Positions 33,137 to 48,437 of a stretch of DNA of 62,761 nucleotides are shown here, piece after piece. Source of the stretch: Bacteroidota bacterium (GTDB taxonomy: Bacteria; Bacteroidota; Bacteroidia; AKYH767-A; OLB10). How positions within the stretch are numbered: position 1 is the first letter of the stretch; each line of letters begins with the position of its first letter. The stretch is taken from NCBI GenBank assembly GCA_046303115.1, contig JBKCGZ010000190.1:1-62761 (forward strand), in the 5' to 3' direction. Position numbers and translations under genes: made by a program. The notes under the pieces are model-generated. The model was not told the origin of the DNA, searched no databases, and was given only the letters and a program-made list of their open reading frames with translations.

Positions 33137-34798
33137 ATGATGCTTCGAAATAACTTCTTTTATTCATTGGTCTGCCTCTTTTTAGGGATTACTTTTTCTT
33201 CAGTTGGACAAAATAGCAAGCCCGATTTTAGATCGCCGGTGGATATTCCTATTTCACTGGCGGGCAATTTTTGTGAAATCAGACCCAATCATTTTCATTC
33301 CGGTATCGATATCCGAACAAATGGAAAGGAAGGCTTACCCATATTTGCAATTGATGATGGATATGTTTCAAGAATCAAGGTGAGTCCAACAGGATTTGGA
33401 AGAGTCGTTTATATCAACCATCCCGAAGGATATACCTCCGTTTATGCCCATTTATCTTCTTTCAATTCTCCGTTGGATGCTTTTGTCGACTCCATTCAAA
33501 AGGCCAACGAATCATACGATATGGAAGAATTTCCCGATGCCAAAAGATTTAAAGTCAATAAAGGGGATTGCATAGGATGGAGTGGTAATTCAGGATCGAG
33601 TGCTTCGCCACATCTGCACTTTGAAATTCGTGATTTGAAATCGGAAGAGCCATTGAATCCGCTGGCGTTTTTAAATTATGAAGATTCTATTGCGCCAGTT
33701 ATTGAACGGATTAGAATAGTCCATATCAATTTAGATAAAGTTTATAAACCAATAACTGATATCTCAACTTCAGATTATTTAATAACTGTAACCACCGGTA
33801 TTGATTATGGGGATTATTATTTTGAATTAAAAGGAAGTGACAATAGTGGAGATTCGTATATGAACTTTTATTCCATTAACGTAATGACAAATAAAGGCGA
33901 TACACTATTTGATTGTAAGTTCGACCGATTTAATTTCGACGAAACAAGAATGGTAAATTCATTTATTAATTACTCTTCATTAGTAAACGATAAAGAAGAA
34001 TGGCAAAGACTTTACAAGCTACCCTCCAACACAGCTACACTATTTAAAAACTGTATTTCGAAACCACTTACCATTTCGGATGATAATGATACAATATATT
34101 TTAAAGTTACTGACTATAGTGGCAATTCAACAGTTGAACAAGTCATACTATACGGATTTAAACAAGAAGAAATAATAGGAGATTATAAAGAATCAATTTG
34201 CAGATATTACAATGAAAGTTTTACCATTCCTTTTAAATATGGATTCATGAATATCCCTGCTAGTGGAATAGATCAATCACTTTGTTACGAATTAACCGAT
34301 TACGATACAATCCCCGACTCAACAACCTTTTTAATTGGAGATCCTTCTGTTCCTTTAATCAAGAATGCAACAGTAGTGATTCAAAAAAAACTAGGCACTA
34401 ACTTTTGGCTTTGCGAAAGAAATTGGAAGAATGAATTAACCGGAACCTCATTCAAGTTAGACAGTGCGAAATACGGTTATCAAACAAGCATTAAAAAAAT
34501 GGGATGGTACTCGGTAGAATGCGATAGTGTAGCACCACAACTCATAAAAGTAATATCAGAAAAAGACCCTATCATCAAGGAACAGAAAAACATATTATTA
34601 AAAATCAGCGATGATATTTCAGGAGTTAAAAAAGCCAATGTATTCATTAATGGAAATTTCCTTCCATGCGAATTTGATTTAAAACGAAGCAGCGTTGTGA
34701 TTAAAGGAAGTCAACTCAAAAAAGGTGATATCATCCATTTAAAATTAATCGACTATCAAGGAAATACTACCTTAATAGAAAAAGTCGATTGGAATTGA
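33137..34798 (+). CDS. M23 family metallopeptidase
   Basis: Signal peptide; HFHSGID, YAHL, PHLHFEIR. Confidence 0.92.
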   Translation: MMLRNNFFYSLVCLFLGITFSSVGQNSKPDFRSPVDIPISLAGNFCEIRPNHFHSGIDIRTNGKEGLPIFAIDDGYVSRIKVSPTGFGRVVYINHPEGYTSVYAHLSSFNSPLDAFVDSIQKANESYDMEEFPDAKRFKVNKGDCIGWSGNSGSSASPHLHFEIRDLKSEEPLNPLAFLNYEDSIAPVIERIRIVHINLDKVYKPITDISTSDYLITVTTGIDYGDYYFELKGSDNSGDSYMNFYSINVMTNKGDTLFDCKFDRFNFDETRMVNSFINYSSLVNDKEEWQRLYKLPSNTATLFKNCISKPLTISDDNDTIYFKVTDYSGNSTVEQVILYGFKQEEIIGDYKESICRYYNESFTIPFKYGFMNIPASGIDQSLCYELTDYDTIPDSTTFLIGDPSVPLIKNATVVIQKKLGTNFWLCERNWKNELTGTSFKLDSAKYGYQTSIKKMGWYSVECDSVAPQLIKVISEKDPIIKEQKNILLKISDDISGVKKANVFINGNFLPCEFDLKRSSVVIKGSQLKKGDIIHLKLIDYQGNTTLIEKVDWN

Positions 34799-34861
34799 CA
34801 AGGGTCATTCACGTACTATGATGTAAGTCATTTTAAAATGTTATCCGTCGCTGTACTTTTG
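34796..34861 (+). promoter_or_regulatory. Crp/Fnr-type promoter: tandem TGA-N6-TCA boxes and -7 element
   Basis: TGACAAGGGTCA 34796-34807, TGATGTAAGTCA 34819-34830, 23-nt gap, TACTTTTG 34854-34861. Confidence 0.75.
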
Positions 34862-34864
34862 ATT

Positions 34865-34955
34865 TCGAGATGGAGACATCCCATTGTACTAAAATAATAG
34901 TACCATAGTTTACTGGTTTGGATAGAGTCGCAGCAATGCGGCTCTACTTTTTTTT
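34865..34955 (+). ncRNA. Candidate unannotated ~90-nt small RNA
   Basis: Own promoter; hairpins GATG-GAGA-CATC and GTACTA-N6-TAGTAC; single-stranded GU-rich tract; ends in intrinsic terminator; the next gene has a separate -7-like box (TACTTTCG 34959-34966). Confidence 0.6.
34923..34955 (+). terminator. Intrinsic terminator
   Basis: tagagtcgca-GCAA-tgcggctcta followed by C and T8. Confidence 0.9.
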
Positions 34956-34976
34956 AGTTACTTTCGCGAAAGATTT

Positions 34977-35699
34977 ATGCTTATTCTATTTTACTTTTTG
35001 GCATTAGTGGCGGAGGTTGTTGGAACAATTGGAGGGTTTGGTTCTTCCATCTTTTTTGTCCCCATTGCATCATTCTATTTCGAACCTAAATTAGTCCTTG
35101 GCATCACTGCATTTTTTCATGTGTTTAGCAATATCTCAAAGCTGGTGTTATTTGGAAAGCATATCAAAATGAACATCGCTTTGAAGTTTATAATACCGAG
35201 TGTAATTGGTGTTATCATTGGAGCGCTGTTAGTCGCTAAACAATCAGGAGAGATTTTTTCTTTATCGATTGGAATATTCCTGATTTTATTTGCACTGTAC
35301 TTTTTAATTTATCCGAATAAAACAATCAACGCAACCAACAAGAACATTGTGATAGGAGGAAGTAGCGCAGGATTTTTAGCAGGATTTATTGGTACAGGCG
35401 GAGTCATTCGTGGAGCAGCAATGGCGGCATTTAATCTCGAAAAGAATTGCTTTGTTGCTACCTCAGCATTTATCGATTTATTCGTTGATATTAGTCGTTC
35501 TGCAATCTATTATCAAAATGAATTTATTGCAAAAGATAAATGGTATTATATCCTTCCGTTGATTTTCATTTCTTTCGCTGGAAGCTATATTGGAAAATTA
35601 ATTCTTGAAAAATTAAACCAAGATAAGTTCAGAAGAATAGTTTTAATTTTAATTTCGATAATGGGAACAGTATCGGTAATTCGATTTATATGCCAGTAA
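34977..35699 (+). CDS. TSUP / sulfite exporter TauE/SafE family protein
   Basis: GTIGGFGSS and AGFIGTGG repeats, 8 TM. Confidence 0.85.
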   Translation: MLILFYFLALVAEVVGTIGGFGSSIFFVPIASFYFEPKLVLGITAFFHVFSNISKLVLFGKHIKMNIALKFIIPSVIGVIIGALLVAKQSGEIFSLSIGIFLILFALYFLIYPNKTINATNKNIVIGGSSAGFLAGFIGTGGVIRGAAMAAFNLEKNCFVATSAFIDLFVDISRSAIYYQNEFIAKDKWYYILPLIFISFAGSYIGKLILEKLNQDKFRRIVLILISIMGTVSVIRFICQ

Positions 35700-36688
35700 A
35701 GGATAAAAATTTCAGGACAAAAGTAAATGCCATTTCAGTGGTGCTGGCACTTTCTGTTTTGATTATGCTCATCAAATTCGTTGCTTATTACGTTACGAAA
35801 TCGAATGCATTATTATCAGATGCCCTTGAATCGTTTATCAATATTGCCACCAGCTCATTTACGCTTTACAGTATTTATTATTCTGCAAAATTAAAAGACC
35901 ATGATCATCCTTACGGACATGGTAAGATTGAATACCTTGCTGTAGGATTTGAAGGTGCCTTGATTTTAGGAACGGGCGTTTACATTTTATATGAAGCCTT
36001 TAATCATTTCATCCATCCAGAGCCTTTACAAAATGTAGATCTCGGAATTATGATTACTGCATCCACTGGACTATTCATGTATTTCATTGGATCGTTTTTG
36101 AAGAAGAAAGGTCGTGAGTTAGATTCAATTACTTTGGTTGCAGATGGAGAACATTTTCACTTGGACACTATCACCAGCATCGCACTAATTGTTGGATTAG
36201 TTTTATATCACTTAACCAAGTTAACCTGGATTGATCCATTACTCGCTGTATTGCTCGCTGTCCATATTATGATGAGTGGATATAAGCTTACCAAAGAGTC
36301 TATTGATCGTTTACTAGATAAAGCCGATTTCGATACCATTCAGAATGTGGTGAACTCCTTAAATAAAAATCGTAAACCCAACTGGATTGATATTCACAAT
36401 TTACGAATGCAGCGCTTTGGAAATATTATCCATATTGATTGTCATCTAACGCTTCCGTTTTATTACGCACTCGACCAAGTGCATAATGAAATCAAAAATT
36501 TAGAAGCAGATATCAATAAAGACTTCAATCAAGAAGTTGAGTTTTTTGTTCATACCGATCCTTGCAATGAAGAATTCCCTTGCAAGCTATGTAATGTAGA
36601 AGAATGTGCGTTTCGAAAGTTCGACCACCTTCAAACAGTTGATTGGGATATTAAAAATCTGATGGCTAATAAAAAGCATCAGCTGTAA
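35690..36688 (+). CDS. Cation diffusion facilitator family transporter
   Basis: ALLSDALES, DHDHPYGHGKIE, ADGEH, DIHNLR, Cys-rich tail. Confidence 0.93.
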   Translation: MPVKDKNFRTKVNAISVVLALSVLIMLIKFVAYYVTKSNALLSDALESFINIATSSFTLYSIYYSAKLKDHDHPYGHGKIEYLAVGFEGALILGTGVYILYEAFNHFIHPEPLQNVDLGIMITASTGLFMYFIGSFLKKKGRELDSITLVADGEHFHLDTITSIALIVGLVLYHLTKLTWIDPLLAVLLAVHIMMSGYKLTKESIDRLLDKADFDTIQNVVNSLNKNRKPNWIDIHNLRMQRFGNIIHIDCHLTLPFYYALDQVHNEIKNLEADINKDFNQEVEFFVHTDPCNEEFPCKLCNVEECAFRKFDHLQTVDWDIKNLMANKKHQL

Positions 36689-36691
36689 AAT

Positions 36692-37396
36692 TTATCTACA
36701 AGTTTGATGTGTCTTCACACGTTCATGCTTGCAACAATCACCTTCACCACTTTTCATTACACTACCTCGATGGATTAAAAACAAGGCTAATGCTATTGCA
36801 ATAAATGGAGATAGTTTGTTGATGGATAATTTTACTTTAGAACTAAAAATATTTTGAGATACTGCCACTATGTACATCAATGGTAGGGTGCCTAATCCAA
36901 ACAAAAGCATATAAGCCGCAGCATTAGTAATACCTCCATAACTAATAGCGCCCGCCATGGCTAAGTAAACAAATCCACAAGGTAATATTCCGTTTGCTAG
37001 TCCTACAACATACATTGCCGCAAATGATTTCTTCTTGATGTAATTTCCGATAACTGATTTAATCCTGAAAGACATTTTTACTAAACGTCCATTGACTTTA
37101 CTCAATAGTTTATCGTTTAAAAACAATACAACAAGGATGATTAATATTCCAGAGAAAATACTCAAATCACTTTGCAATCCTTTTAATTGAAAACTAATTC
37201 CAATTAATCCTGCTATCACACCCAACAGCATATACATCGTAACACGACCGAGTTGGTACATCAAGCGACCCAAATAAAAATGTCTTGCATCACCATCAAC
37301 AACAGGTAATGATAACGCAATGGGTCCGCACATACCAAGGCAATGAAAACTCCCTAAAAATCCGAGCGACAATGCGCTAATCAGATAATAATTCAT
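36692..37396 (-). CDS. cbb3-cluster membrane protein (DsbD_2 / TauE-like)
   Basis: GSFHCLGMCGPI and NGILPCGFVY motifs; last gene of the cco operon. Confidence 0.88.
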   Translation of the reverse strand: MNYYLISALSLGFLGSFHCLGMCGPIALSLPVVDGDARHFYLGRLMYQLGRVTMYMLLGVIAGLIGISFQLKGLQSDLSIFSGILIILVVLFLNDKLLSKVNGRLVKMSFRIKSVIGNYIKKKSFAAMYVVGLANGILPCGFVYLAMAGAISYGGITNAAAYMLLFGLGTLPLMYIVAVSQNIFSSKVKLSINKLSPFIAIALALFLIHRGSVMKSGEGDCCKHERVKTHQTCR

Positions 37397-37397
37397 T

Positions 37398-37829
37398 TTA
37401 CTGCAGCATTAATTTTTCTTCTTGCAAATATTCTTTTCCATCACAACTCCAGGCAATGGTTAATCGCCAATAGCCACCTGATAATTTATCCGACTGAACC
37501 AGCATTTTACCATTTTCGTTTTTGATGTTCATTGTAAAATCCTTTTGTTTATCGTCAGGACGATAAAATGTCAATTTGCCTTTTATGGCACGATTAGCAA
37601 ATTCAGAAGGAAAAGATAACTCAACTGATTTGTCATTGACAGGATTACATACTACCGTTGCTGCAGCGGCATTCTGCATTTTATTATAACGGTCTTGATA
37701 TTTTACTTCCTGATCGTAATAATTATCAGCAACCAACTCTGTGTTTTGTTGCGTGCATTTGTAAACCAATGTCAACATACCAACAACAAACAACACATAA
37801 ACAAACATTATTTTATATCCCCAATTCAT
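37398..37829 (-). CDS. ccoH: FixH/CcoH family protein
   Basis: MNWG start, LVADNYYDQE, FYRPDD; follows ccoG. Confidence 0.85.
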   Translation of the reverse strand: MNWGYKIMFVYVLFVVGMLTLVYKCTQQNTELVADNYYDQEVKYQDRYNKMQNAAAATVVCNPVNDKSVELSFPSEFANRAIKGKLTFYRPDDKQKDFTMNIKNENGKMLVQSDKLSGGYWRLTIAWSCDGKEYLQEEKLMLQ

Positions 37830-37831
37830 AG

Positions 37832-39244
37832 CTATTTTATTTTTACAGGACCAATGAAATTAGTCTTGATTGTTTCAATTATTTTGTTGCCAGATTTCAC
37901 TTCTAATACAATAGGCAGTCTGGCATTTACAATTTGATTTTGATTAATCATCACAAAGAATTCCCCATCCGCGCTACCTTGTCCTTCTAATTTTGTAATC
38001 CCATCGCCAACCCATTTCACACTTCCGTTCGGAGAAACGAGTTTAATATCAACGGGCATCTGATCGAACGTTTTATTAATGAGGTTCACGTTATATAAAT
38101 TTGAATAGATACTATCATTTTGTTGTTGGTAGATCATACCAGGAGTACGCAGTATAGTAGATTCCACATCGGAACGCATAATTAAAAGCGACAATAAGGT
38201 AGTCAGCAAAACGAAGAGTACAAATGAATACGCTTTTATTCTTCCTGTTATTTGAAATTTCGTCCCTTCAGCAATGGCATTTTCACTTGTATAACGGATA
38301 AGGCCATGTGGCTTTTTAATTTTATCCATGATGCCATCACATGCATCAATACAAGCAGTACAGTTTACACATTCGAGCTGCGTACCATTACGGATATCGA
38401 TACCGGTAGGACATACATTCACACATTGATGACAATCGATGCAATCACCAAATTTAGATTCAGCAGTCTTTTGCAATTTACCTCTTGGCTCTCCGCGTTT
38501 ATAATCGTACGCAATTACCACCGAATTTTTATCAAGCAAAACACCTTGTAGCCTTCCATAAGGACAAACAATTAAACAAGCCTGCTCGCGAAAACGCATA
38601 TACACCGCAAAGAACACGAACCTAAAAACGAGAATCGCTATTAACCCACCGACGTGATTGGATGGATCAACCAAAACAATTTGTTTTAATTCATCGATGC
38701 CAATGATGTAAGCAAGAAATGTATTTGCAATGATAAATGAAATCAGAAAAAAGATACTTCCTTTTAAAATTCGCTTTCTGAATTTTTCAGGAGATGGAGG
38801 AGCATTCTTCAATGCCTTTTGTTGTGCAGCATCACCTTCAATCCAGTATTCAATTTTACGAAAGACCATTTCCATGAAGATAGTTTGTGGGCAAGCCCAA
38901 CCACACCAGAGTCGCCCGAACAACGCTGTAAATACAATAATAAAAACAACAAACGTAAGCATCGCCAACACGAACAAGTAAAAGTCCTGTGGCCAAAAAG
39001 CAATTCCGAATAAAATAAACTTCCGCTCAACAACATTTAATAACATGAATGGGTGTCCGTTTAATTTAATAAACGGACCCACAAACATGACTGCTAATAA
39101 GAAATAACTAAATAATGTCCTTTTATTATAAAAGCGACCTTTAGGCTTCTTCGGAAAAATCCAATTACGGTTACCGTCTTTAGAAATAGTTGAAATACTA
39201 TCTCTAAAACTATCGGCTTCGTCGTAAATAGCGGGATCCATCAT
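37832..39244 (-). CDS. ccoG: Cytochrome c oxidase accessory protein CcoG
   Basis: CGWACPQT, CPYGRLQ, CIDCHQCVNVCPTGIDIR, CVNCTACIDAC. Confidence 0.96.
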   Translation of the reverse strand: MMDPAIYDEADSFRDSISTISKDGNRNWIFPKKPKGRFYNKRTLFSYFLLAVMFVGPFIKLNGHPFMLLNVVERKFILFGIAFWPQDFYLFVLAMLTFVVFIIVFTALFGRLWCGWACPQTIFMEMVFRKIEYWIEGDAAQQKALKNAPPSPEKFRKRILKGSIFFLISFIIANTFLAYIIGIDELKQIVLVDPSNHVGGLIAILVFRFVFFAVYMRFREQACLIVCPYGRLQGVLLDKNSVVIAYDYKRGEPRGKLQKTAESKFGDCIDCHQCVNVCPTGIDIRNGTQLECVNCTACIDACDGIMDKIKKPHGLIRYTSENAIAEGTKFQITGRIKAYSFVLFVLLTTLLSLLIMRSDVESTILRTPGMIYQQQNDSIYSNLYNVNLINKTFDQMPVDIKLVSPNGSVKWVGDGITKLEGQGSADGEFFVMINQNQIVNARLPIVLEVKSGNKIIETIKTNFIGPVKIK

Positions 39245-39252
39245 TTTAATTA

Positions 39253-40218
39253 TTAGTTAGCTGTAGTAGTAATTGTAGTTGCTGTTGAGTCAGTAGCAGT
39301 AGGAGCAGAGTCATCACCCCAAACATCACCTTGCGCAGGTTTTGCATTAGCAGGATTCGTATTCTGCATTGACAAAATATAACTTGAAACAGCTTGAATA
39401 TTCTTAGGTGTTAATTGCGTTTTCCAGCTGATCATTCCTTTTAAAGGAACGCCATTCGTGATTGTTCTAAAAACATTTTTTATTCCACCACCATGAATCC
39501 AATTAGGGTCAGTTAAATTGGGGCCTATGTTACCTTCCAAATTTTGACCGTGACAAGAAGTACAGTTTTTATTAAAAATTTCTTTTCCTTCACTTAAAAC
39601 AGTTGCATCGGTCAGCAACTTCACATTTTCAGCAGTCACCATGTCCGCCATTTTTTCATTTCTGATACGTTGTGCTTCATCAGCAGCTTGAACAGAAGCA
39701 ATGTACTCCTGATCTTGACTATAACCTGTTTTGAAAACATGGAAATGAAACACATAAATTACAGCCCATATAATGGTGAAGTAAAAACCCCATTTCCACC
39801 AAGGAGGTAAATTATTATCTAATTCACGAATTCCATCATAGTCATGATGAAGCATGATGTCCTCTTCCTTTTCAACAGGCACTGCTTGCGTTAAAACGTT
39901 ACGATCAAAGCGAGACCAAAACGATTCTGTCTGAACAGGCTTTACCGTTTCTGATTTTACCTGTTGCTCTTTTTGAGGAGCCATTCCTCTTGCAATAACT
40001 AATAACGTTCGTGCCATAACGAAAATGGCAATCAAGAGAATCAGAATAAAAATAGCCAGGTAATAAAAAGAAGGTTGGTAGAATAGTGGATCAACGGTTT
40101 TAAAGTATTGTCCACTGTTCGCTACTGTTGTACTATCTGTTACAGCTTGTGCATGGACAGTTGTATTGAAAAACAACTGTCCTGAAATTAATCCAATTGT
40201 GATGATGTACTTTTTCAT
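39253..40218 (-). CDS. ccoP: cbb3-type cytochrome c oxidase subunit III (single heme)
   Basis: HDYDGIRELDNNLPPWW, CTSCH, GPNLTD; ATG 40218 preferred. Confidence 0.93.
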   Translation of the reverse strand: MKKYIITIGLISGQLFFNTTVHAQAVTDSTTVANSGQYFKTVDPLFYQPSFYYLAIFILILLIAIFVMARTLLVIARGMAPQKEQQVKSETVKPVQTESFWSRFDRNVLTQAVPVEKEEDIMLHHDYDGIRELDNNLPPWWKWGFYFTIIWAVIYVFHFHVFKTGYSQDQEYIASVQAADEAQRIRNEKMADMVTAENVKLLTDATVLSEGKEIFNKNCTSCHGQNLEGNIGPNLTDPNWIHGGGIKNVFRTITNGVPLKGMISWKTQLTPKNIQAVSSYILSMQNTNPANAKPAQGDVWGDDSAPTATDSTATTITTTAN

Positions 40219-40228
40219 GATAATCAAT

Positions 40229-40405
40229 TTATGCGTTATTGGTTTCGTCGTTGCTTAATGGCAACCTGCTTATTTCATTTAACTCTTCTTTATTTGCCTT
40301 TACCACATAAACAATCAAGGCAGTAAAGAATACGAAGAATACCAGCAGAGAGAACATAGGATAAATACCTACGTCAGTAATTTGTTCTAAATATTGTTTA
40401 AACAT
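40229..40405 (-). CDS. ccoQ: cbb3-type cytochrome c oxidase subunit IV (58 aa; not in ORF track)
   Basis: Manual translation MFKQYLEQITDVGIYPMFSLLVFFVFFTALIVYVVKANKEELNEISRLPLSNDETNNA; fills the ccoNO-ccoP gap. Confidence 0.9.
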   Translation of the reverse strand: MFKQYLEQITDVGIYPMFSLLVFFVFFTALIVYVVKANKEELNEISRLPLSNDETNNA

Positions 40406-40413
40406 ATGCTTGC

Positions 40414-42546
40414 TTATTTTGTAGTTGAATTATCAGAAACTTTATTTGCTTTAATATCGACACCTAATCGTTGTAAGTAGGCAATCATTGCTACTAACTC
40501 TTTATTTGCATCGATAGGAGCACCACTCTTATTTAAGTCCGCGGCAATTTCATTTGCTTGCTTCATCAAATCAGCATTGGCTTGTTGATCGTACCCTTTT
40601 GTGTAAGGAACGCCTAACGTAATCATCGCTCTGATTTTTGCTGGAGTAGAAGCAGTATCTAAATTATTTTCTGCAAGAAAAGCATATGGAGGCATGATAG
40701 AACCTGGCGACATAGTTCGAGGATCAATCATATGATGATAATGCCATACGTTTTGATATTTTCCTCCAACACGTAATAAATCAGGACCTGTTCGCTTAGA
40801 ACCCCATTGGAAAGGATGATCATACACAAACTCACCAGCTTTAGCATATTCTCCATAACGTTCTGTTTCGTGACGGAACGGACGAACCATTTGCGAGTGA
40901 CAAGTGTAACAACCTTCACGGATATAAATATCACGACCTTGTAATTCAAGTGGAGTATAAGGCTTCACTGATGCAATCGTTGGAATATTTTCTTTAATCA
41001 TGAATGTTGGAATCATCTCTACTAATCCACCAATTAAAATCAACACCGTTGCAAACAACATCATCTGAATTGGTCTTCTTTCAATCCAACGATGCCAGTG
41101 ACCACCTTCATGAACAGGAACAGCTTCTAATGCTGGAGCTTCTGCTGGTTCATTCGCTAATAAATCGCCCGTCTTCATCGTCATCACTAAATTGTAAACC
41201 ATCGTTAACGCACCTGCTAAATACAACGTACCACCAACAGCACGTAACTTATACATCGGCATTAACTTCGTTACCGTTGCTAAGAAGTTTGGATATTTTA
41301 ATAATCCATCATCAGTAAATTGTTGCCACATCATGTATTGTTCAAACCCTGCCCAATACATCGGAATGGCATAGAATAAAATTCCTAACGTTGCTAACCA
41401 GAAGTGATAGCTTGCTAATTTTTTAGAGTATAATTCGGTTTGATAAATGCGAGGGATTAACCAATATAAAATACCAAATGTTAACATACCATTCCATCCA
41501 AGTCCACCAATATGCACGTGTGCGATGGTCCAATCTGTAAAGTGAGAAATTGCATTCACTGATTTCAATGATAACATCGGACCTTCAAATGTTGCCATAC
41601 CATAGGCAGTGATTGCAACAACCATAAACTTCAATACAACACTTTCACGAACACGATCCCATGCACCACGCAATGTCAAAAGTCCGTTGATCATACCACC
41701 CCAGCTCGGAGCAATTAACATGATAGAGAAAACAGTTCCTAATGATTGCGCCCAATCAGGTAATGCAGTATATAATAAGTGATGAGGACCTGCCCAGATA
41801 TAAATAAAAATTAATGCCCAGAAGTGAATTATCGATAATCGATAAGAATACACCGGACGATTAGCAGCCTTCGGAACGAAATAATACATCAAACCTAAAT
41901 ACGGCGTAGTTAAAAAGAAGGCTACTGCATTATGTCCGTACCACCATTGCACTAACGCATCTTGCACACCTGCATATACAGGATAGCTCTTTAATATACT
42001 TACAGGAATTTCAATACTATTTACAATGTGAAGTACTGCAACAGTAACCACCGTTGCAATATAAAACCAAATGGCAACGTATAGATGTCGCTCGCGACGT
42101 TTGATAATTGTACCAAACATATTCACCGCAAATACAACCCAAGTAAGTGTGATCAAGATATCAATCGGCCATTCTAATTCAGCATATTCTTTACCTGTTG
42201 TATGTCCGGTAATTAATGTTAATGCAGCAAGCACAATAATCGATTGCCACATCCAAAAATGAAGTTTGCCTAACAAGTCGCTAAACAATCTCGCTTTCGT
42301 TAAACGTTGAAGGGAATAATACAATCCCATAAAAATTCCATTACCTACAAAGGCAAAAATGATGGCGTTGGTATGTATAGGTCGTACGCGACCAAATGTA
42401 ACATACTCACCAGCATTTAAACCAGGAAAAGGTATTTGAAGGGCTGCAATTAAACCCACCAGCATTCCTACAATTCCCCAGATAATTGTCGCAACTGCAA
42501 AATTCCTAACAATGCGATTGTCGTAGCTATACTTCTCAATTGTCAT
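40414..42546 (-). CDS. ccoN: cbb3-type cytochrome c oxidase fused subunits I/II (CcoN-CcoO)
   Basis: QWWYGHNAVAF, WAGPHH, AHVH; CcoO part CYTCHSQMVRP, GSKRTGPDL. Confidence 0.97.
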   Translation of the reverse strand: MTIEKYSYDNRIVRNFAVATIIWGIVGMLVGLIAALQIPFPGLNAGEYVTFGRVRPIHTNAIIFAFVGNGIFMGLYYSLQRLTKARLFSDLLGKLHFWMWQSIIVLAALTLITGHTTGKEYAELEWPIDILITLTWVVFAVNMFGTIIKRRERHLYVAIWFYIATVVTVAVLHIVNSIEIPVSILKSYPVYAGVQDALVQWWYGHNAVAFFLTTPYLGLMYYFVPKAANRPVYSYRLSIIHFWALIFIYIWAGPHHLLYTALPDWAQSLGTVFSIMLIAPSWGGMINGLLTLRGAWDRVRESVVLKFMVVAITAYGMATFEGPMLSLKSVNAISHFTDWTIAHVHIGGLGWNGMLTFGILYWLIPRIYQTELYSKKLASYHFWLATLGILFYAIPMYWAGFEQYMMWQQFTDDGLLKYPNFLATVTKLMPMYKLRAVGGTLYLAGALTMVYNLVMTMKTGDLLANEPAEAPALEAVPVHEGGHWHRWIERRPIQMMLFATVLILIGGLVEMIPTFMIKENIPTIASVKPYTPLELQGRDIYIREGCYTCHSQMVRPFRHETERYGEYAKAGEFVYDHPFQWGSKRTGPDLLRVGGKYQNVWHYHHMIDPRTMSPGSIMPPYAFLAENNLDTASTPAKIRAMITLGVPYTKGYDQQANADLMKQANEIAADLNKSGAPIDANKELVAMIAYLQRLGVDIKANKVSDNSTTK

Positions 42547-42718
42547 AATGATTGATTTTTGATTTTTCGTTTGATGTTATTTCATTATCCATTAATATGC
42601 GAACTGCAGGGGAAGTATCATCATCAAATTGTCCTGTTTTAACAGACCAGAAAAATGCAATCAGAAATCCGATAGCAACGGTTAAACTGGCAATGATTAA
42701 AAGGATGATTACTTTCAT
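42536..42718 (-). CDS. ccoS: cbb3 oxidase maturation protein CcoS
   Basis: Hydrophobic N-terminus then WSVKTGQFDD...PAVRIL. Confidence 0.93.
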   Translation of the reverse strand: MKVIILLIIASLTVAIGFLIAFFWSVKTGQFDDDTSPAVRILMDNEITSNEKSKINHYDN

Positions 42719-42726
42719 AACGAGAG

Positions 42727-42791
42727 CAAATCTATTTCGAGAGTAGGATTAATTAAATGACTGCTATTAGGGTGATTTATGATAATTGTCA
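42727..42791 (-). promoter_or_regulatory. Crp/Fnr-type promoter of ccoS-NO-Q-P-G-H operon
   Basis: -7 box TAGATTTG (42727-42734, minus), 23-nt gap, TGACTGCTATTA 42758-42769, TGATAATTGTCA 42780-42791. Confidence 0.75.
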
Positions 42792-42793
42792 AC

Positions 42794-45211
42794 CTACTTC
42801 GTGAAACCTAATTGTCGTGCTTTTATCGAGCTGGCCACTACCGTATATATCACTAAACTGCTTGTGCTGATAGGCATTAAAATAGCCGCAATTACAGGCG
42901 ATAAAGTTCCTTGTACTGCAAACCATAATCCCAGAAAATTATACACCAGTGATATGATAAAACTGATGATGATAATTCGGTTAGCCGACTTGGCAAGACG
43001 AATTAACTTCTCCAATTTTGATAAATTACTTCCAATAATAATAGCATCACATGCAGGAGTAAAATTGTTGATGTCGTTTGAAATGGCAATTCCTACATGG
43101 CTATGCATTAACGCACCTGCATCATTTAATCCATCACCAACCATCATTGTTTTAAATCCATGTTGATTAAGTTCATTGATGTAATTTAACTTATCAATTG
43201 GTTTGCAATGAAAGCGCATATGCGTTCCTTCGGGAAGAATTGTACTTAGGTTGATTCGCTCATGCTCATCATCACCACTGATCACACCTAATTGAATATT
43301 GTGATTTGATAAGTCGGAAGTTAACTCTTGAACGCCTTCGCGATATTTATTTTGAATTGCGAAATATCCGTATACCTCATTATCAATTCCAATATATACT
43401 CGTGTTGATTTTAATGTATCGAGTTGTTTTTTTCCTGTCAGGTATTCTTCACTTCCAATTTTATAGTGATGTCCGAAAATCATGGCCGTTAATCCTTGAC
43501 CAGGAAATTCTTCAATATGAATAGATGTATCTGCGAATGCTTTTAATTTCAAATATTTCGATAATACAATACTTAATGGATGAGTAGAAGAGGATACAAT
43601 TGTATAGATAGCACGTAAATGAAAATCGCTCAATTCAACACCAACATAATTTATCTGATTAGATTCAGGTTCCGTTAATGTGCCTGTTTTATCAAATATA
43701 ACGGTATCAATATCCGCCAACTTTTCTATTACCTGAACATTGCGTAGATAAATTCCTTTCTTACCAAGCAATCGAATAATATTTCCGAAGGTGAAAGGAG
43801 CAGATAATGCCAATGCACAAGCACACGCAATAACAAGTACCGCAGTGAAAGCATTAATTGCTCTTGTAAAATCCTGATGATACCAATAAGCAAAGGATGA
43901 TATAGCAATCACAACGGTCACGAGAACAAACCATCGGCTAATGGTATTCACCATTTTTTGAAAATAACTTGTCTGATTAACTTTATCACTTTGTTGATTC
44001 CAAAGTTTGGTCAGGTAACTATTAGAGGTTGCCTGATCGACCATCACGTCGATAGGACCATTCAACAACTTTGCTCCCGCATAAATCAATTCACCTTTAT
44101 TGACTTTTATAGGTGTTGATTCACCAGAAACAAAACTATAATCGATATGAGCAGATTGATTTAACAGTTTTACATCAGCAGGAATAATCTCATGATTGCG
44201 AATCTTTAGTCGATCACCTTTAACAACATCATTTACTAAAACAGTTTCTTCTTTAATGCCATTGTATCTCGTAACCGCAATAGGGAAGTAGGAGGTATAA
44301 TCCCTGTTAAACGAAAGCCATTGATAGGTTTTATCTTGAAAATTTCTTCCAATAAGCATGAAGAAGATAAGTCCCGTCATACTATCAAAATAACCAGGAC
44401 CCGTACCAGAAACAATTTCGTACAAGCTTCTTAAAAACATGGCTAAAATACCGATGGCAATAGGCACATCAATATTGACAACCTTTTGTCGGAAGCTTCT
44501 AAAAGAGTTAATAAAAAACTCACTTGCAGAATAAAAGAAAACCGGCAATGCTAAAACCACAATCACATATCGAAATAAATGTCGGAAGTCCTCAGCGCCA
44601 AAAACACCTCCCGATAAATATTCAGGAAAACTCAACAACATAATATTTCCAAAAGCAAATCCAGCTAAACCAATTTTATAAATCCTTGCATTCGATTTTT
44701 TAGCGAACTGATGATTGCTGACTTTATTTAAATTCAATTCTGGCTCGTAACCAATTAATGTAAGTTGTTCAACTATATTGCGAAGGGAAGTTGCCGACGA
44801 ATTAAAAACAATCAATATTTCCTTGCTGACAAAATCAACTTGCGATCGTATTACGCCCTTATCGATTCTTGAAAAATTCTCTAACAACCAAATACAACTA
44901 CTACAATGCATATTCGGAATATGAAAACGAATATGAACTTCATTCTTAGATTTAAAACTGATTAACTTCTCAATAATTTGCTCTTCCTCTAAAAAAGCAA
45001 AGCGATTACCGAGATAACTGTTCTTACGATTTATGCCAGGGTTATCGGAAATAGCGTAATAATTACAAAGGTTGTTTTCATTCAGTACTTCATATACTAA
45101 CTTACAACCTACGCAACAAAAGTCTTTATCATCAAATTTAACTTTGTCTTCTTCACACTTTTCGTGACAGTGATAACAATTGATAACTACTGAAGTATTT
45201 GTTAATGACAT
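42794..45211 (-). CDS. ccoI: Heavy-metal (copper) P1B-type ATPase CcoI/FixI
   Basis: CYHC and FCCVGC N-terminal motifs, HCSSC, SGES, CACAL, DKTGT, GDGLNDA. Confidence 0.93.
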   Translation of the reverse strand: MSLTNTSVVINCYHCHEKCEEDKVKFDDKDFCCVGCKLVYEVLNENNLCNYYAISDNPGINRKNSYLGNRFAFLEEEQIIEKLISFKSKNEVHIRFHIPNMHCSSCIWLLENFSRIDKGVIRSQVDFVSKEILIVFNSSATSLRNIVEQLTLIGYEPELNLNKVSNHQFAKKSNARIYKIGLAGFAFGNIMLLSFPEYLSGGVFGAEDFRHLFRYVIVVLALPVFFYSASEFFINSFRSFRQKVVNIDVPIAIGILAMFLRSLYEIVSGTGPGYFDSMTGLIFFMLIGRNFQDKTYQWLSFNRDYTSYFPIAVTRYNGIKEETVLVNDVVKGDRLKIRNHEIIPADVKLLNQSAHIDYSFVSGESTPIKVNKGELIYAGAKLLNGPIDVMVDQATSNSYLTKLWNQQSDKVNQTSYFQKMVNTISRWFVLVTVVIAISSFAYWYHQDFTRAINAFTAVLVIACACALALSAPFTFGNIIRLLGKKGIYLRNVQVIEKLADIDTVIFDKTGTLTEPESNQINYVGVELSDFHLRAIYTIVSSSTHPLSIVLSKYLKLKAFADTSIHIEEFPGQGLTAMIFGHHYKIGSEEYLTGKKQLDTLKSTRVYIGIDNEVYGYFAIQNKYREGVQELTSDLSNHNIQLGVISGDDEHERINLSTILPEGTHMRFHCKPIDKLNYINELNQHGFKTMMVGDGLNDAGALMHSHVGIAISNDINNFTPACDAIIIGSNLSKLEKLIRLAKSANRIIIISFIISLVYNFLGLWFAVQGTLSPVIAAILMPISTSSLVIYTVVASSIKARQLGFTK

Positions 45212-45230: not shown

Positions 45231-45295
45231 CAAGATTATTCAATGTATACACCTATACGAATGACAAATGTCAGTTGCTATTTTGATAGTGGTCA
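45231..45295 (-). promoter_or_regulatory. Crp/Fnr-type promoter of ccoI
   Basis: -7 variant TAATCTTG (45231-45238, minus), 23-nt gap, TGACAAATGTCA 45262-45273, TGATAGTGGTCA 45284-45295. Confidence 0.75.
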
Positions 45296-45338: not shown

Positions 45339-45381
45339 TGACGTAGGTCATTTGCAACTCATCTTGAATAAAGCAATTTTG
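45339..45381 (+). promoter_or_regulatory. Crp/Fnr-type promoter of the 45402 hypothetical gene
   Basis: TGACGTAGGTCA 45339-45350, 23-nt gap, -7 variant CAATTTTG 45374-45381. Confidence 0.65.
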
Positions 45382-45401: not shown

Positions 45402-45803
45402 ATGTTATCCGAAACAAAAGCGTCGAGCTCGCTACACCTTTACATCGATTTAAACTCAAGACTATCTGAAATCCAGAGAGAGTTCAATTCTTATTTCCCA
45501 TTCTTAAAGATTGAATTTTTTAAAGCACCTCATAAAATCGGACAAGGATTAAAGAAAGATCTAATCATCAATTCGAATAAATTAGTGAAGGATTGTTCAA
45601 CTATCAAAAAGGGTGGTGTAATTGAATTTACCAATATCACTTCTGTAAGCGATTTAGAAACGAAATTTTTCAAAGACTTTAAATTATCTGTGCAGGTATT
45701 TAGAAAGGCAGGTAGGGTATGGTTAGAAACAACTGCAACAGATAGCTGGACCCTAGCGCAACAAAATGAAGAAGGCGCTGAATTCTCAACGCCCTCTAAA
45801 TAA
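45402..45803 (+). CDS. Conserved hypothetical protein
   Basis: EIQREFNSYFPFLKIEFF, VQVFRKAGRVWLETTATDSWTLAQQN; ATG 45402 follows promoter. Confidence 0.8.
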   Translation: MLSETKASSSLHLYIDLNSRLSEIQREFNSYFPFLKIEFFKAPHKIGQGLKKDLIINSNKLVKDCSTIKKGGVIEFTNITSVSDLETKFFKDFKLSVQVFRKAGRVWLETTATDSWTLAQQNEEGAEFSTPSK

Positions 45804-45816
45804 TATGATCTTCTTT

Positions 45817-46875
45817 TTAAGCTTTTAAATGTCGAAGCTTTTCATCATTGATGATTTTAATTTTTCCTTCTTTAATCTCAATTAACTTTTCTTCTTTAAA
45901 ATCACTAAGCGTTCTAATCAACGACTCAGTAGCTGTCCCAACAATATTGGCTAAATCTTCACGAGCGATAGCCATAGCAAAATGAGATGCATCAGTCGTC
46001 TTGTACTTATCTTGTAATAAAATCAATGCCTCGGCAGTTCTCTTTCTAACAGAACTGTAAGCCAATTCTAATAGACGTTCTTGCTTATCGATAACACCCT
46101 TTGTTAAGAAACGAATAAAGTTCTTCGTAACGGCATGGTTGCTATAAACCAGATTAAAAAACTCTTCCTTCGGAATGAAAATCACTTCTGACTCTTCTAG
46201 CGTTTCAGCACTTTCAATATAAGGCTTTTCTTCTAACAGCGACACATATCCGAAGAAATCACCTTCTTTCAATAAATCAGTGATCAACTCTTTACCATAC
46301 TCATGCGTCTTGGTAATTTTAACCTTACCTGACTTCACATAATAAATTCCGTTAGGGTAGTGGTGCTCCTGATAAATCTTTTCTTTCTTTTTATAATGAT
46401 TCACTTTTTTACCATCTAGGAATTTCTTCAAGGCTGCATCACCAGCCACATCACTGATGAAATGACTTAGTCCATCAAAGTCAGGCTGATAATCTTTCTT
46501 AAGTGCATCAGCTCTTTTCAAACGACTTTCAATAGCGTTTAATAATTCCGTCTTATCAAAAGGTTTGGTGATATAATCATCAGCACCTAAATCCATTCCT
46601 TTACGCATATCGCTGCGCTCAGCTTTTGCCGTCAAGAAAATAAATGGAACTGAATTTAAATCATTATCCTTACTCAGTAAATGTAAAACTCCATAGCCAT
46701 CTAAACCTGGCATCATGATATCACAGATAATCAAATCTGGTTTTTCCTTACGAGCCATTTCAACACCCTCTTTTCCATCCGGTGCTGTACAAACTGTATA
46801 ATTCGCCAGCTCTAAAATTTCAGCTGTATTTTCTCTTACATCCAGATTGTCTTCAATTAATAAAATCTTTTTCAT
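45817..46875 (-). CDS. Response regulator: receiver domain fused to a Crp/Fnr cNMP-like and HTH domain
   Basis: LLIEDN, ICDIMMPGLDG, FLTAK, DDYITKPF; then GKVKI, GDFFG; HTH REDLANIVGTATESLIRTLSDFK. Confidence 0.93.
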   Translation of the reverse strand: MKKILLIEDNLDVRENTAEILELANYTVCTAPDGKEGVEMARKEKPDLIICDIMMPGLDGYGVLHLLSKDNDLNSVPFIFLTAKAERSDMRKGMDLGADDYITKPFDKTELLNAIESRLKRADALKKDYQPDFDGLSHFISDVAGDAALKKFLDGKKVNHYKKKEKIYQEHHYPNGIYYVKSGKVKITKTHEYGKELITDLLKEGDFFGYVSLLEEKPYIESAETLEESEVIFIPKEEFFNLVYSNHAVTKNFIRFLTKGVIDKQERLLELAYSSVRKRTAEALILLQDKYKTTDASHFAMAIAREDLANIVGTATESLIRTLSDFKEEKLIEIKEGKIKIINDEKLRHLKA

Positions 46876-46879
46876 AGCA

Positions 46880-48121
46880 TTAATTTATTTGATTCGGAAA
46901 AGTGATCTCAATCCTTGTTCCTTCGTTTAGTTTACTTGTTAAATGTAAATGACCTTTCATAATGTCAACATAGTTGCCCACAATATGCAACCCTAATCCT
47001 GTACCTTGAATATTAAATGCATTTTTTCCTCTATAGAAACGCTCAAACAAATGCTTCAAATCTTCTTCGCTAATTCCAATTCCCTGATCTTGCACCACCA
47101 TCTTTATTTCATTGGTATTTACATCTGCATCCAATGTTATAGACTTGCCTTCTGATGAAAATTTAATAGCATTACTTAAAAGATTAAAAAGAATATTCTT
47201 GATTAGCTTAGCATCAAGAAACACCAAATTATCACCACGATAATTAATAATTATTTCTTGTCCTGCTTTTGTATTCTGACGCATATCACTCGCAATTTCA
47301 TTTATCAGCATATTCAAATCGAACATACTCATATCGGCATGAATCTTTCCTTCTTCTAATTTACTGATGGATAGAAAATCACTTAAGATATCATTCAGGT
47401 TATTAACTGACGATTGAATTCGTTTGATATGCTTTTGCTTTTTCTCTTCTTGCTCAGGAGTTTTATATTCTGAAATCAAAACAGCAGAAGAAAGGATAGT
47501 GGTGAGTGGTGTACGAAACTCATGCGATGCCATTGAAATAAATCGCGACTTTAAATCATTCAGGTCTTTTTCTTTTTCAAGTGCCATACTTAATTCTGAT
47601 CTCGACTTCTCTAATTCCAAAATTGCTTCCTGCAAAACGCTGGTACGATCAGAAACCTTTCGTTCTAAATCTTCATTCGACTTTTGCAAGGTAAGTGCAA
47701 TCTGTTCGAGTTCTAATTGTTTTTCCTTAACCGCAGCTTCAATTTTCTTTCTGATAGAAATATCAATTAAAAAGGCAATTATGTATTTTCGATCATCCTT
47801 AAAAATAGGACTCAAACTAATCTCGATAGGAAACAAGGTCCCATCTTTTCTTAAAGCATATAAATCTAAACCCAATCCCATCGGACGAGCGTGAGGCTTA
47901 TCGACATACGATTTACGATGATGTTCATGATGTACTTTGATGTTCTTAGGAACCAATACATCAATCGATTCATTTAATAATTCATTCGACTCATATCCGA
48001 ACATCTTACATGCTGCTGGATTCATCAATTGAATCAATCCACTTTCATTGGAAATAATAATCCCTTCAGTAGCATGATTGAATAGGGCATCGAGCAACTC
48101 GACTTTCTCAAAATTCTGCAT
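46880..48121 (-). CDS. Cytoplasmic PAS-domain sensor histidine kinase (FixL-like)
   Basis: PAS (NPAACKMFGY...HHEHH...RPMG...RKDGTLFPIEISLS), H-box SHEFRTPL, N-box NLLSNAIKF, G-boxes DQGIG and GTGLGL; no TM. Confidence 0.93.
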   Translation of the reverse strand: MQNFEKVELLDALFNHATEGIIISNESGLIQLMNPAACKMFGYESNELLNESIDVLVPKNIKVHHEHHRKSYVDKPHARPMGLGLDLYALRKDGTLFPIEISLSPIFKDDRKYIIAFLIDISIRKKIEAAVKEKQLELEQIALTLQKSNEDLERKVSDRTSVLQEAILELEKSRSELSMALEKEKDLNDLKSRFISMASHEFRTPLTTILSSAVLISEYKTPEQEEKKQKHIKRIQSSVNNLNDILSDFLSISKLEEGKIHADMSMFDLNMLINEIASDMRQNTKAGQEIIINYRGDNLVFLDAKLIKNILFNLLSNAIKFSSEGKSITLDADVNTNEIKMVVQDQGIGISEEDLKHLFERFYRGKNAFNIQGTGLGLHIVGNYVDIMKGHLHLTSKLNEGTRIEITFPNQIN

Positions 48122-48170: not shown

Positions 48171-48350
48171 TTATTTATTGCTGTTATATCCTGCTAAATA
48201 ATACAACGGACAAAATCCAGAAGCACCTGTTACAAACGGGATTAATCCCGAAATTGCCCAAAATGAATTATGATAGATAAAAAAAGACGCGACAGCTACT
48301 CCAGCAACTAAGCGAATAACTCGTTCATTAAAATTTTCATTGGTTACCAT
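48171..48350 (-). CDS. DUF2892 (YgaP-like membrane domain) protein
   Basis: NENFNERVIRL, GFCPLY motif; start moved to ATG 48350. Confidence 0.85.
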   Translation of the reverse strand: MVTNENFNERVIRLVAGVAVASFFIYHNSFWAISGLIPFVTGASGFCPLYYLAGYNSNK

Positions 48351-48372: not shown

Positions 48373-48437
48373 CAAAAGTAGATGCTCCATCCAACCAAAT
48401 AAATTACGCTAATCAGTACACGTTATGATAAATATCA
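48373..48437 (-). promoter_or_regulatory. Crp/Fnr-type promoter upstream of DUF2892-kinase-regulator
   Basis: -7 box TACTTTTG (48373-48380, minus), 23-nt gap, TTACGCTAATCA 48404-48415, TGATAAATATCA 48426-48437. Confidence 0.75.

Follow-up and report, generated by a model that had tools for sequence, protein, structure and literature searches.

The present analysis asks what controls the cbb3 oxidase genes of a Bacteroidota bacterium in which a sensor histidine kinase, and a regulator that joins a receiver domain to a Crp/Fnr body (receiver-Crp), are encoded directly beside those genes, and whether these two proteins are, as an earlier note on the same DNA had claimed, the rhizobial FixL-FixJ-FixK cascade collapsed into two. 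The stretch analyzed, hereafter the window, is 62,761 nucleotides long (contig JBKCGZ010000190.1). How respiration is tuned to oxygen is well understood for Proteobacteria (FNR, FixLJ-FixK, ArcAB) and Actinobacteria (DosRST) but, to our knowledge, hardly understood for Bacteroidota, a dominant phylum of soils, waters, and guts. We consider it probable, if well short of certain, that the pair is an autoregulated two-component system turning on a low-oxygen or redox regulon that is centered in this genome on the cbb3 locus. In such a system the PAS domain of the kinase would hold heme b via His65, with Met81 the probable sixth ligand, in a hexacoordinate pocket like those of FG214 and DosP; a drop in oxygen, reduction of the heme or loss of a ligand would lead the kinase to autophosphorylate on H200, from where the phosphate would move to the regulator's D52; and phosphorylation, standing in for the acquisition of a [4Fe-4S] cluster by FNR, would promote a DNA-binding dimer. 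The dimer would then bind (A/C)TGA(T/C)-N4-(A/G)TCA(T/G) boxes centered at -41.5 and/or -63.5, in a class II or class I-like arrangement, and would activate ccoI, ccoS-ccoNOQP-ccoGH, orf136, a TauE/CDF transporter pair and its own operon in the window, and Usp, Hsp20, HemN, DoxX and similar genes in other genomes.

Both open reading frames (ORFs) were found exactly where they had first been placed (Table 1), the kinase with 413 amino acids (aa) and the regulator with 352, and the regulator starts 4 bp past the kinase stop codon. The pairing of the two is far from chance. We examined 80 related loci taken from named genome assemblies, nine of them shorter than 6 kb; cultured carriers among the sources are Runella limosa DSM 17973 (L034) and Rufibacter latericius (L076). 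In 75 of the 80 the gene immediately upstream, in the same orientation, encodes a homologous kinase, one of the five exceptions being cut by a contig end, and 68 of those 75 adjacent kinases align from residue 15 or earlier. Of the 80 sets of fetched flanks, 32 contained a cco gene and 37 a homolog of orf136. The order receiver (REC), cyclic nucleotide monophosphate (cNMP)-type barrel and Crp-type helix-turn-helix (HTH) was present in all of the best 120 of at least 8000 scored regulator matches, and the source-named ones among those best 120, most being unnamed, belong to Bacteroidota-type organisms and carry generic labels, e.g. 'response regulator'.

The regulator was compared across 81 sequences. 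All of its domains scored above the Pfam cut-offs (PF00072 107 bits, PF00027 78 bits, PF13545 51 bits, PF00325 25 bits) and the protein matched the Crp/Fnr structure 2gau at 2e-24, which bears out the earlier reading of a complete receiver joined to a Crp/Fnr body (Response_reg, cNMP_binding and HTH_Crp_2). The receiver catalytic residues E8, D9, D52 and K104 occur in 81/81, as does T or S at position 82. The cassette of the cNMP-like barrel reads E-S-A, and position 221, which is taken to correspond to the cAMP-holding Arg-Ser (R82/S83) of CRP, is E in 48, D in 15, S in 9, H in 5 and G in 4 of the 81, with Arg in none. The recognition helix, T-A-T-E-S-L-I-R, had been said to keep the Glu and Arg of CRP and FNR within its TESLIR portion (316-321), and it does so throughout, E317 and R321 being present in 81/81 and I320, at the place of the FNR Ser, in 80/81. 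The absence of an FNR-type Cys cluster from the regulator was likewise confirmed: there are two Cys only, C29 and C51, both in the receiver, and the Cys positions of 24 FNR-like relatives described below read Y and I here. What had to be given up is the collapsed cascade, since the best-scoring matches to the receiver are of the OmpR/PhoB and PleD types and not of the FixJ type, and since the Crp module is homologous to the Cys-cluster FNR-like proteins of Bacteroidota; the same two findings rule out a fusion of FixJ with FixK. Because of them the regulator would be better described as an FNR-like protein after a sensor swap than as a FixLJ-FixK cascade in compressed form.

The spacer between ccoI and orf136 carries AATGAC-N4-GTCAgT together with a perfect AATGAC-N4-GTCATT, and exact TGAC-N4-GTCA occurs three times in the window against 0.62 expected, in all cases in one of two promoters. 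For the relaxed form TGAY-N4-RTCA the window has 11 sites where shuffles of it predict 5.4, and seven of the 11 lie in promoters, namely those of ccoS (one), ccoI/orf136 (three), TauE (two) and the ygaP-kinase-regulator operon (one). The strict form was rejected as the operator motif because it proved too narrow, being found in 13/69 kinase and 3/24 ccoS promoters of related loci, and was replaced by TGAY-N4-RTCA with a geometry rule. Against a background of 0.058 relaxed boxes per 200 bp, such a box lies at most 200 bp upstream of ccoS in 24/24 related loci (positions -65 to -100), of ccoI in 16/19 and of orf136 in 16/37, while in the closest relatives a YgaP homolog again stands upstream of the kinase and is box-preceded in 6/6; the boxes are often in tandem, 22 bp apart.

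The geometry rule came from the offset at which the Bacteroidota -7 element, TAnnTTTG, begins relative to the box centre, with pairs at offsets 6-119 counted in the 80 loci. Of 169 box/-7 pairs, 71 fell at offset 51(.5) and 31 at 29(.5), and the remaining offsets averaged 0.6 each. For CRP and FNR proteins -41.5 is the textbook class II position, and -41.5 and -63.5 are both positions from which they activate. The -7 box of Flavobacterium spans -12 to -5 according to one report (PMC9723704), and the box centres therefore fall at -41.5 and -63.5. The 102 sites validated by geometry give the consensus (A/C)TGA(T/C)-N4-(A/G)TCA(T/G), which shares the spacing and the TGA/TCA core of the FNR site TTGAT-N4-ATCAA, with A/C instead of T as the outer base. 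When intergenic boxes were scanned over the whole window genome, allowing at most one mismatch in the -7 element, peaks appeared at offset 29 (6 sites) and offset 51 (7 sites), the other 41 offsets with matches having a median of 1 site and at most 3, and all five window promoters were recovered. FNR-geometry boxes thus stand at activator positions before the adjacent cco genes, in agreement with the earlier statement that the regulator adjoins the same target genes as FixK. Because the regulator is paired with a kinase of the heme-PAS type, keeps the Glu and Arg of the helix and has FNR-geometry boxes before its neighboring cco genes, the best reading would be that phosphorylation acts directly on the Crp/Fnr factor.

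The distribution of the regulator was followed in 400 genomes from the phylum with a completeness of 90% or more, of which 100 belong to the class of the window. Full-length receiver-Crp was found in 55/100 same-class genomes and in 3/300 others. Within the class, ccoN was present in 70/100 genomes and a stand-alone FNR-like protein in 48/100, three further matches to the latter being receiver-Crp itself. The 70 ccoN-positive genomes carried both regulators in 19 cases, receiver-Crp only in 22, the FNR-like protein only in 28 and neither in 1; for the 30 ccoN-negative genomes the corresponding numbers were 0, 14, 1 and 15. The FNR-like protein hardly ever occurs without ccoN (present in 47/48 carriers), at least one of the two regulators occurs in 69/70 ccoN genomes of the class, and 22/23 ccoN genomes without the FNR-like protein carry receiver-Crp, these 22 spanning 8 families. 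The window genome itself has ccoN and receiver-Crp and lacks an FNR-like match at 1e-40. A regulator dedicated to cco was rejected as an explanation, 14/55 same-class carriers having no ccoN, in favor of a broader low-oxygen regulon with complementarity to the FNR-like protein.

Of the 29 same-class genomes with ccoN and without receiver-Crp, 20 were fetched, and in six of them a stand-alone Crp/Fnr gene of 235-258 aa lies before ccoI, in the slot that the kinase-regulator pair occupies here. These six and 18 others from across the sample (20 fetched, two without an ORF under the filter being left out) formed a set of 24 FNR-like proteins. All 24 have the helix GTA[T/S]E[S/T]xIR, the regulator's own signature, and show 34-38% identity to residues ~150-347 of the regulator. 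They carry an N-terminal C-x2-C and conserved Cys in 'G[VI][FY]C[IV]' and 'VCF[IV]P', segments that in the regulator are 'GIYYV' and 'VIFIP', and five of the 24 have a full C-x2-C-x8-C; their loci yield the same box consensus (19 sites). In a quick maximum-likelihood tree all 81 regulator Crp modules fell on one side of a branch with support of 93 in the Shimodaira-Hasegawa-like approximate likelihood ratio test (SH-aLRT), apart from the 24 FNR-like proteins; its outgroup branch is very long, so that the tree establishes neither where the root lies nor which way the swap went.

The regulon of receiver-Crp would be broader than cbb3, because 14 genomes have the pair without ccoN and because genes for Usp, Hsp20 and HemN are box-preceded elsewhere. 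Counting families with an intergenic box 25-160 bp upstream in the 80 loci and the window (ccoS, too short for the ORF filter, was counted apart), we found the kinase in 33 loci, orf136 in 16, ccoI in 15, tandem Usp in 12, DoxX in 12 and an unknown 125-aa family in 9, followed by a TerB-like family, Hsp20 and an unknown 108-aa family in 5 each, and HemN, ScdA/hemerythrin, MBL-rhodanese and YceI in 2 each.

The sensor is the remaining part of the circuit. The domain layout of the kinase leaves no space for a membrane segment, and PAS, HisKA and HATPase_c all score above the Pfam cut-offs, so the soluble PAS kinase described earlier stands. Searched against all solved structures, the PAS domain matched FG214 of Fimbriimonas ginsengisoli (PDB 10jx) at 5e-14 and DosP/EcDOS of E. 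coli at about 3e-12, all alignments being ungapped; FixL of B. japonicum and R. meliloti matched at 1e-12 to 2e-10, again without gaps, over about 120 residues. All 14 best PDB matches are heme-PAS proteins, ahead of any flavin or other PAS. The proximal His (FixL H200, DosP H77) aligns with H65, and in the PDB alignment FixL R206 corresponds to S71, which varies among orthologs, H214 to R79, and I216-G217 to M81-G82; the BjFixL numbering was checked on chains 2cmn and 1y28, which we take to be the R206A and R220A mutants. FG214 residues H156, H159, R160, Y163, P167, R170, M172 and G173 align with H65, H68, R69, Y72, P76, R79, M81 and G82. Conservation was scored in 68 kinases, namely that of the window and 67 of the 75 adjacent ones, eight having been left out by the 85% coverage or start-codon filter: H65 is kept in 66, R69 in 63, Y/F72 in 68, P76 in 60, R79 in 67, M81 in 66, G82 in 66 and H200 in 68. 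The motif that had been quoted for the kinase is present (HHEHH at 64-68, Y72, R79, M81-G82, RKDG at 91-94, FP at 97-98), but within its His run only H65 is a family feature, H64 being found in 4/68, H67 in 9/68 and H68 in 37/68. FG214 binds heme b with H156 as proximal ligand, H175 as distal ligand in the ferric state and M172 as an alternative distal ligand, the H156-M172 pair having been seen in a dithionite-soaked crystal, as stated in a preprint (bioRxiv 10.64898/2026.03.15.711900). Since H65 and M81 are the counterparts of H156 and M172 in the alignment and are each kept in 66/68 kinases, the PAS is most likely a heme-b domain with His65/Met81 ligation, nearer in its chemistry to FG214 and DosP than to the five-coordinate FixL. 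The description of the sensor as FixL-like therefore survives in part: the domain is homologous to the FixL heme domain and the proximal His is kept, but the distal pocket is not of the FixL type (R220 to L85, R206 to S71) and fits the His/Met arrangement of FG214 better.

Several findings weigh against the model as a whole. Raw box counts are not enriched genome-wide (192 observed vs about 227 extrapolated from window shuffles), only the geometry and intergenic filters picking out sites at that scale, with five sites at the key offsets when an exact -7 element is required, and only 33/69 kinase genes have a relaxed box at most 200 bp upstream. Phylogenetic co-occurrence with ccoN, proposed earlier as a check, is weak for receiver-Crp, ccoN being present in 41/55 carriers (75%) vs 29/45 non-carriers (64%); the sampled genomes are moreover interrelated, so that these and the other genome counts overstate independence and are descriptive rather than a formal test. 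In the sensor, FixL R220, the oxygen-binding Arg that is R97 in DosP, aligns with L85, and the oxygen-stabilizing Arg is thus absent (position 85 in the 68 kinases is M in 28, L in 15, R in 8 and K in 6), while the distal His175 of FG214 aligns with G84 (G in 50 and N in 14 of the 68 orthologs). Further, the window genome (2.66 Mb, 98.9% complete) encodes two HTH_Crp_2 proteins only, the regulator and a 211-aa paralog on contig C197, and it is the paralog that has a canonical R-E-V-I-S-R helix; it adjoins OsmC and rhodanese genes, and a box of -41.5 geometry precedes the OsmC gene. Finally, a box lies upstream of ccoS/ccoNO in 16 of the 20 regulator-negative genomes (it is absent in L089, L092, L097 and L099), and the box alone is therefore not diagnostic of receiver-Crp.

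The findings on the sensor could mean that the wiring is as described but that the PAS holds no heme or does not sense oxygen, the signal being instead the general redox state, NO/CO, heme availability or a small metabolite. This we regard as unlikely, although the distal Arg on which oxygen sensing by FixL and DosP depends (R220, R97) is not conserved, 14 carriers have no ccoN, the box-preceded neighbors found elsewhere look like a stress set (ScdA/hemerythrin, Usp, Hsp20, rhodanese, DoxX), and FG214, the closest solved relative, is described as a redox or ligand switch, not an oxygen sensor (bioRxiv 10.64898/2026.03.15.711900). It would leave unaccounted for the near-invariance of the proximal His and the Met and the exclusively heme-PAS character of the best structural matches. 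The core targets, cbb3 with ccoI/S/G/H and HemN, are moreover classical low-oxygen genes, and the system substitutes for a Cys-cluster FNR-like protein. The cbb3 oxidase is strongly induced under oxygen limitation in a flavobacterium, F. psychrophilum (PMC9723704).

Alternatively, the boxes may be read by the 211-aa REVISR paralog, a genuine competitor, in which case receiver-Crp would control something else and would stand beside cco by accident. The canonical FNR E--SR helix of the paralog, the box before the neighboring OsmC gene, and the boxes before cco in the 16 genomes without receiver-Crp all speak for such an arrangement, which we nevertheless judge quite improbable. Those genomes have a stand-alone FNR-like protein with the helix signature of receiver-Crp, adjacent to ccoI in six, whereas the paralog differs from both receiver-Crp and the FNR-like proteins in its helix and N-terminus and sits on a very long branch in the tree. 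The Ser of the FNR helix contacts the outer base of the box, and an outer A/C rather than T fits the E--IR helix family. In addition, the kinase operon is itself box-preceded, and of the 23 ccoN genomes that have no FNR-like protein all but one have receiver-Crp. That the regulator is instead a repressor, or active when unphosphorylated, with the kinase or its phosphatase activity switching genes off, appears very improbable: some Crp/Fnr proteins do repress, and the box overlaps a divergent region in several promoters (ccoI/orf136), but 102 of the 169 box/-7 pairs lie exactly at the CRP/FNR activator positions and no box overlaps the -7 element itself.

With an autoregulated heme-PAS kinase and receiver-Crp pair still preferred, its place among known systems can be considered. 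FixL-FixJ-FixK of rhizobia is similar in that a heme-PAS histidine kinase, homologous to the window PAS with the proximal His aligned, ends in a Crp/Fnr protein that lacks a Cys cluster and acts through FNR-geometry boxes on genes of the fixNOQP/fixGHIS type. It differs in having three proteins rather than two, in the presence of R206 and R220 in FixL, and in its middle and last members: FixJ has a LuxR/NarL HTH, whereas the partner here combines REC, cNMP_binding and HTH_Crp_2 with a receiver that is OmpR/PleD-like by score, and FixK is a single module without a sensor, under transcriptional control of FixJ, whereas the regulator here has its own receiver and a Crp module related to Bacteroidota FNR-like proteins. 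The pair would thus work like FixLJ-FixK compressed into two proteins, yet it is not derived from those families. FNR and the Bacteroidia FNR-like proteins share with the regulator the fold and domain order of its C-terminal 220 residues, and the Bacteroidia proteins also have its helix GTATE[S/T]xIR, occur in the same slot before ccoI, and go with boxes of the same consensus and -41.5/-63.5 geometry. In place of their N-terminal C-x2-C and internal Cys the regulator has a 120-residue receiver, so that its input would be a kinase and not an intrinsic cluster, and compared with E. coli FNR, which has helix E--SR and outer box base T, it has E--IR and A/C. Of solved proteins FG214 (PDB 10jx/10jy) is closest to the window PAS, with about 35% identity over 94 aligned residues, but it is a one-component heme-b HTH-PAS protein whose ferric distal ligand is replaced by Gly here, where the output is a histidine kinase. 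In the mycobacterial DosS/DosT-DosR system a heme kinase phosphorylates one regulator that drives a hypoxia set including Usp and Hsp20 (alpha-crystallin). The logic is the same, and Usp and Hsp20 families are those box-preceded in 12 and 5 loci here, but DosS and DosT carry GAF-heme rather than PAS-heme, and DosR is a NarL-type protein with an unrelated DNA site.

Our literature search found no publication on the receiver-Crp regulator or on the kinase/regulator pair in Bacteroidota, and the domain combination may already stand in response-regulator censuses. Crp/Fnr homologs of Flavobacteriales and Saprospiraceae have been assigned to MalR-like carbon sensing, in a report whose available part makes no mention of receiver fusions (PMC8510549). 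It may be, and here we are nearly but not quite evenly persuaded, that in Bacteroidia one FNR-type DNA-binding module with its box and promoter geometry has been fitted with two interchangeable oxygen front ends, a Cys cluster or a receiver fed by a His/Met heme-b kinase; no FNR-family activator before receiver-Crp would then have been shown to switch through phosphorylation, and receiver-Crp would be the master regulator of an uncharacterized phylum-wide hypoxia regulon (cbb3 with copper and heme assembly, Usp, Hsp20, HemN and the orf136 family). The locus offers a concrete, testable circuit with a candidate sensor pair (H65/M81), a phospho-acceptor (D52), an operator with exact promoter positions and a small regulon. 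The exchange of an iron-sulfur sensor and a receiver for one another on a single DNA-binding module is in addition a natural experiment, and a clean case for asking how two unrelated inputs can drive FNR-type dimerization. In engineering, the module could serve as a heme- or phospho-controlled FNR scaffold, and the uncharacterized, conserved orf136 family acquires a regulatory context.

Table 1. Coordinates of the regulatory pair, its neighboring genes and the candidate operator boxes in the window.
Feature	Position	Strand	Description	Basis
Kinase	46880..48121	-	Soluble sensor histidine kinase: PAS 9-122 (candidate heme-b pocket H65/M81), coiled linker, HisKA 191-258 (H200), HATPase_c 303-411	Pfam; PDB relatives
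Regulator	45817..46875	-	Response regulator: REC 4-116 (D52), cNMP-like barrel 160-243 without cNMP-binding Arg, Crp-type HTH 279-350 (helix GTATESLIR)	Pfam, ortholog conservation
ygaP	48171..48350	-	Small YgaP-like membrane protein (DUF2892-type), probable first gene of ygaP-kinase-regulator operon	Pfam PF11127
orf136	45402..45803	+	Conserved Bacteroidota protein, 133 aa, box-preceded, convergent with regulator gene, between regulator and ccoI	Homologs in related loci
ccoI/fixI	42794..45211	-	P1B-type Cu-transporting ATPase for cbb3 assembly	Pfam, NCBIfam
ccoS/fixS	42536..42718	-	cbb3 maturation protein	Pfam PF03597
ccoNO	40414..42546	-	Fused cbb3 oxidase subunits I and II	Pfam COX1 and FixO; NCBIfam NF011053, 1266 bits
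ccoP	39253..40227	-	cbb3 subunit III	Pfam FixP_N and Cytochrome_CBB3
ccoG	37832-39244	-		Pfam
FixH	37398-37829	-		Pfam
DsbD_2	36692-37396	-	Membrane protein	Pfam
TauE/SafE	34977-35699	+	TauE/SafE-family membrane protein, 3' of tandem-box promoter	Pfam
CDF	35690-36688	+	Cation-efflux protein, after TauE/SafE gene	Pfam
Box, ygaP-kinase-regulator operon	48426..48437		TGATAAATATCA; candidate autoregulation site; near-consensus -7 elements at offsets 28 and 51	Box scan
Box, orf136	45339..45350		TGACGTAGGTCA; inside perfect 16-bp palindrome AATGAC-N4-GTCATT, -41.5 of orf136 promoter; offset 29 to CAATTTTG	Box scan
Tandem boxes, ccoI	45262..45295		TGACAAATGTCA (45262) and TGATAGTGGTCA (45284), 22 bp apart, -41.5 and -63.5 of ccoI promoter; offsets 29 and 51 to TAATCTTG	Box scan
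Box, ccoS-ccoNO	42780..42791		TGATAATTGTCA; -63.5 of ccoS-ccoNO promoter, -7 element TAGATTTG	Box scan
Tandem boxes, TauE/SafE	34796..34830		TGACAAGGGTCA (34796) and TGATGTAAGTCA (34819) before perfect -7 element TACTTTTG; offsets 52 and 29	Box scan

By Pfam and NCBIfam, the genes that follow 3' of the regulator on the same strand are, in order, ccoI/fixI, ccoS, fused ccoNO, a 58-aa ORF, ccoP, ccoG, FixH and the DsbD_2 protein, and the TauE/SafE and CDF genes on the plus strand are convergent with this cluster. A family search with the 58-aa ORF (40229-40405), directly before ccoP, gave no match, and it is ccoQ-like by position only. For ygaP the ATG at 48350 is the likelier start and the TTG at 48398 the alternative. 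The orf136 product had no Pfam or NCBIfam match, and the Atlas gives hypothetical clusters only; its family is Bacteroidota-wide, of ~125-135 aa, with invariant motifs that include F..FP.L and G..W...Q-N. A confident AlphaFold2 model (predicted local distance difference test score, pLDDT, 83) shows a duplicated beta-alpha-beta unit, and naming the fold was given up because the matches were too weak (Foldseek against PDB, best E 0.58; VIA-align Z at most 3.9 to beta-grasp/ubiquitin-like and MCU N-terminal domains).

Some other observations concern variation in the two protein families. In loci L057, L059 and L076, including that of Rufibacter latericius, the adjacent kinase matches the window kinase only from residue ~145 on, its N-terminal sensor being different or strongly diverged, and sensor modules may thus be swapped at the kinase level too. 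Several genomes (G370, G266, G062, G390, G258, G398, G090 and G170) encode two or three full-length receiver-Crp paralogs, and the family appears to have diversified beyond a single hypoxia regulator. The 211-aa paralog of the window genome (locus L082, G000 contig C197, 688-2876, minus strand) has a Cys-rich stretch, 'CAMTFTCC', and its gene appears to form an operon with those of an OsmC-like protein and two single-domain rhodaneses; the box of -41.5 geometry before the OsmC gene is TGACTATTATCA, and the operon may be a separate thiol or sulfur-stress circuit with a similar operator.

Further candidates from the scan of the window genome, as yet unconfirmed, precede genes for MbnP (with a perfect -7 element), a multi-heme cytochrome c, FIST, DUF983, a protein with a type IX secretion system (T9SS) tail, and the OsmC gene already mentioned. 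The first is an MbnP-family copper-acquisition gene (L123, G000 contig C26, 238-1038, plus strand) with a box at -63.5 geometry and the perfect -7 element (TATATTTG), which suggests that copper supply may be co-regulated with the Cu-dependent cbb3 oxidase. In the window, a leader of ~100 nt (34862-34960, plus strand) lies between the -7 element TACTTTTG (about 34854) and the TauE start codon (34977). An Rfam scan of this leader gave a sub-threshold, chance-level match only. It contains a 12-codon mini-ORF and ends in a strong hairpin followed by T8 (minimum free energy -26.6 kcal/mol, z -3.33, 0/200 shuffles folding as well), and might represent an attenuator, or else a small RNA, under the control of the same regulator.

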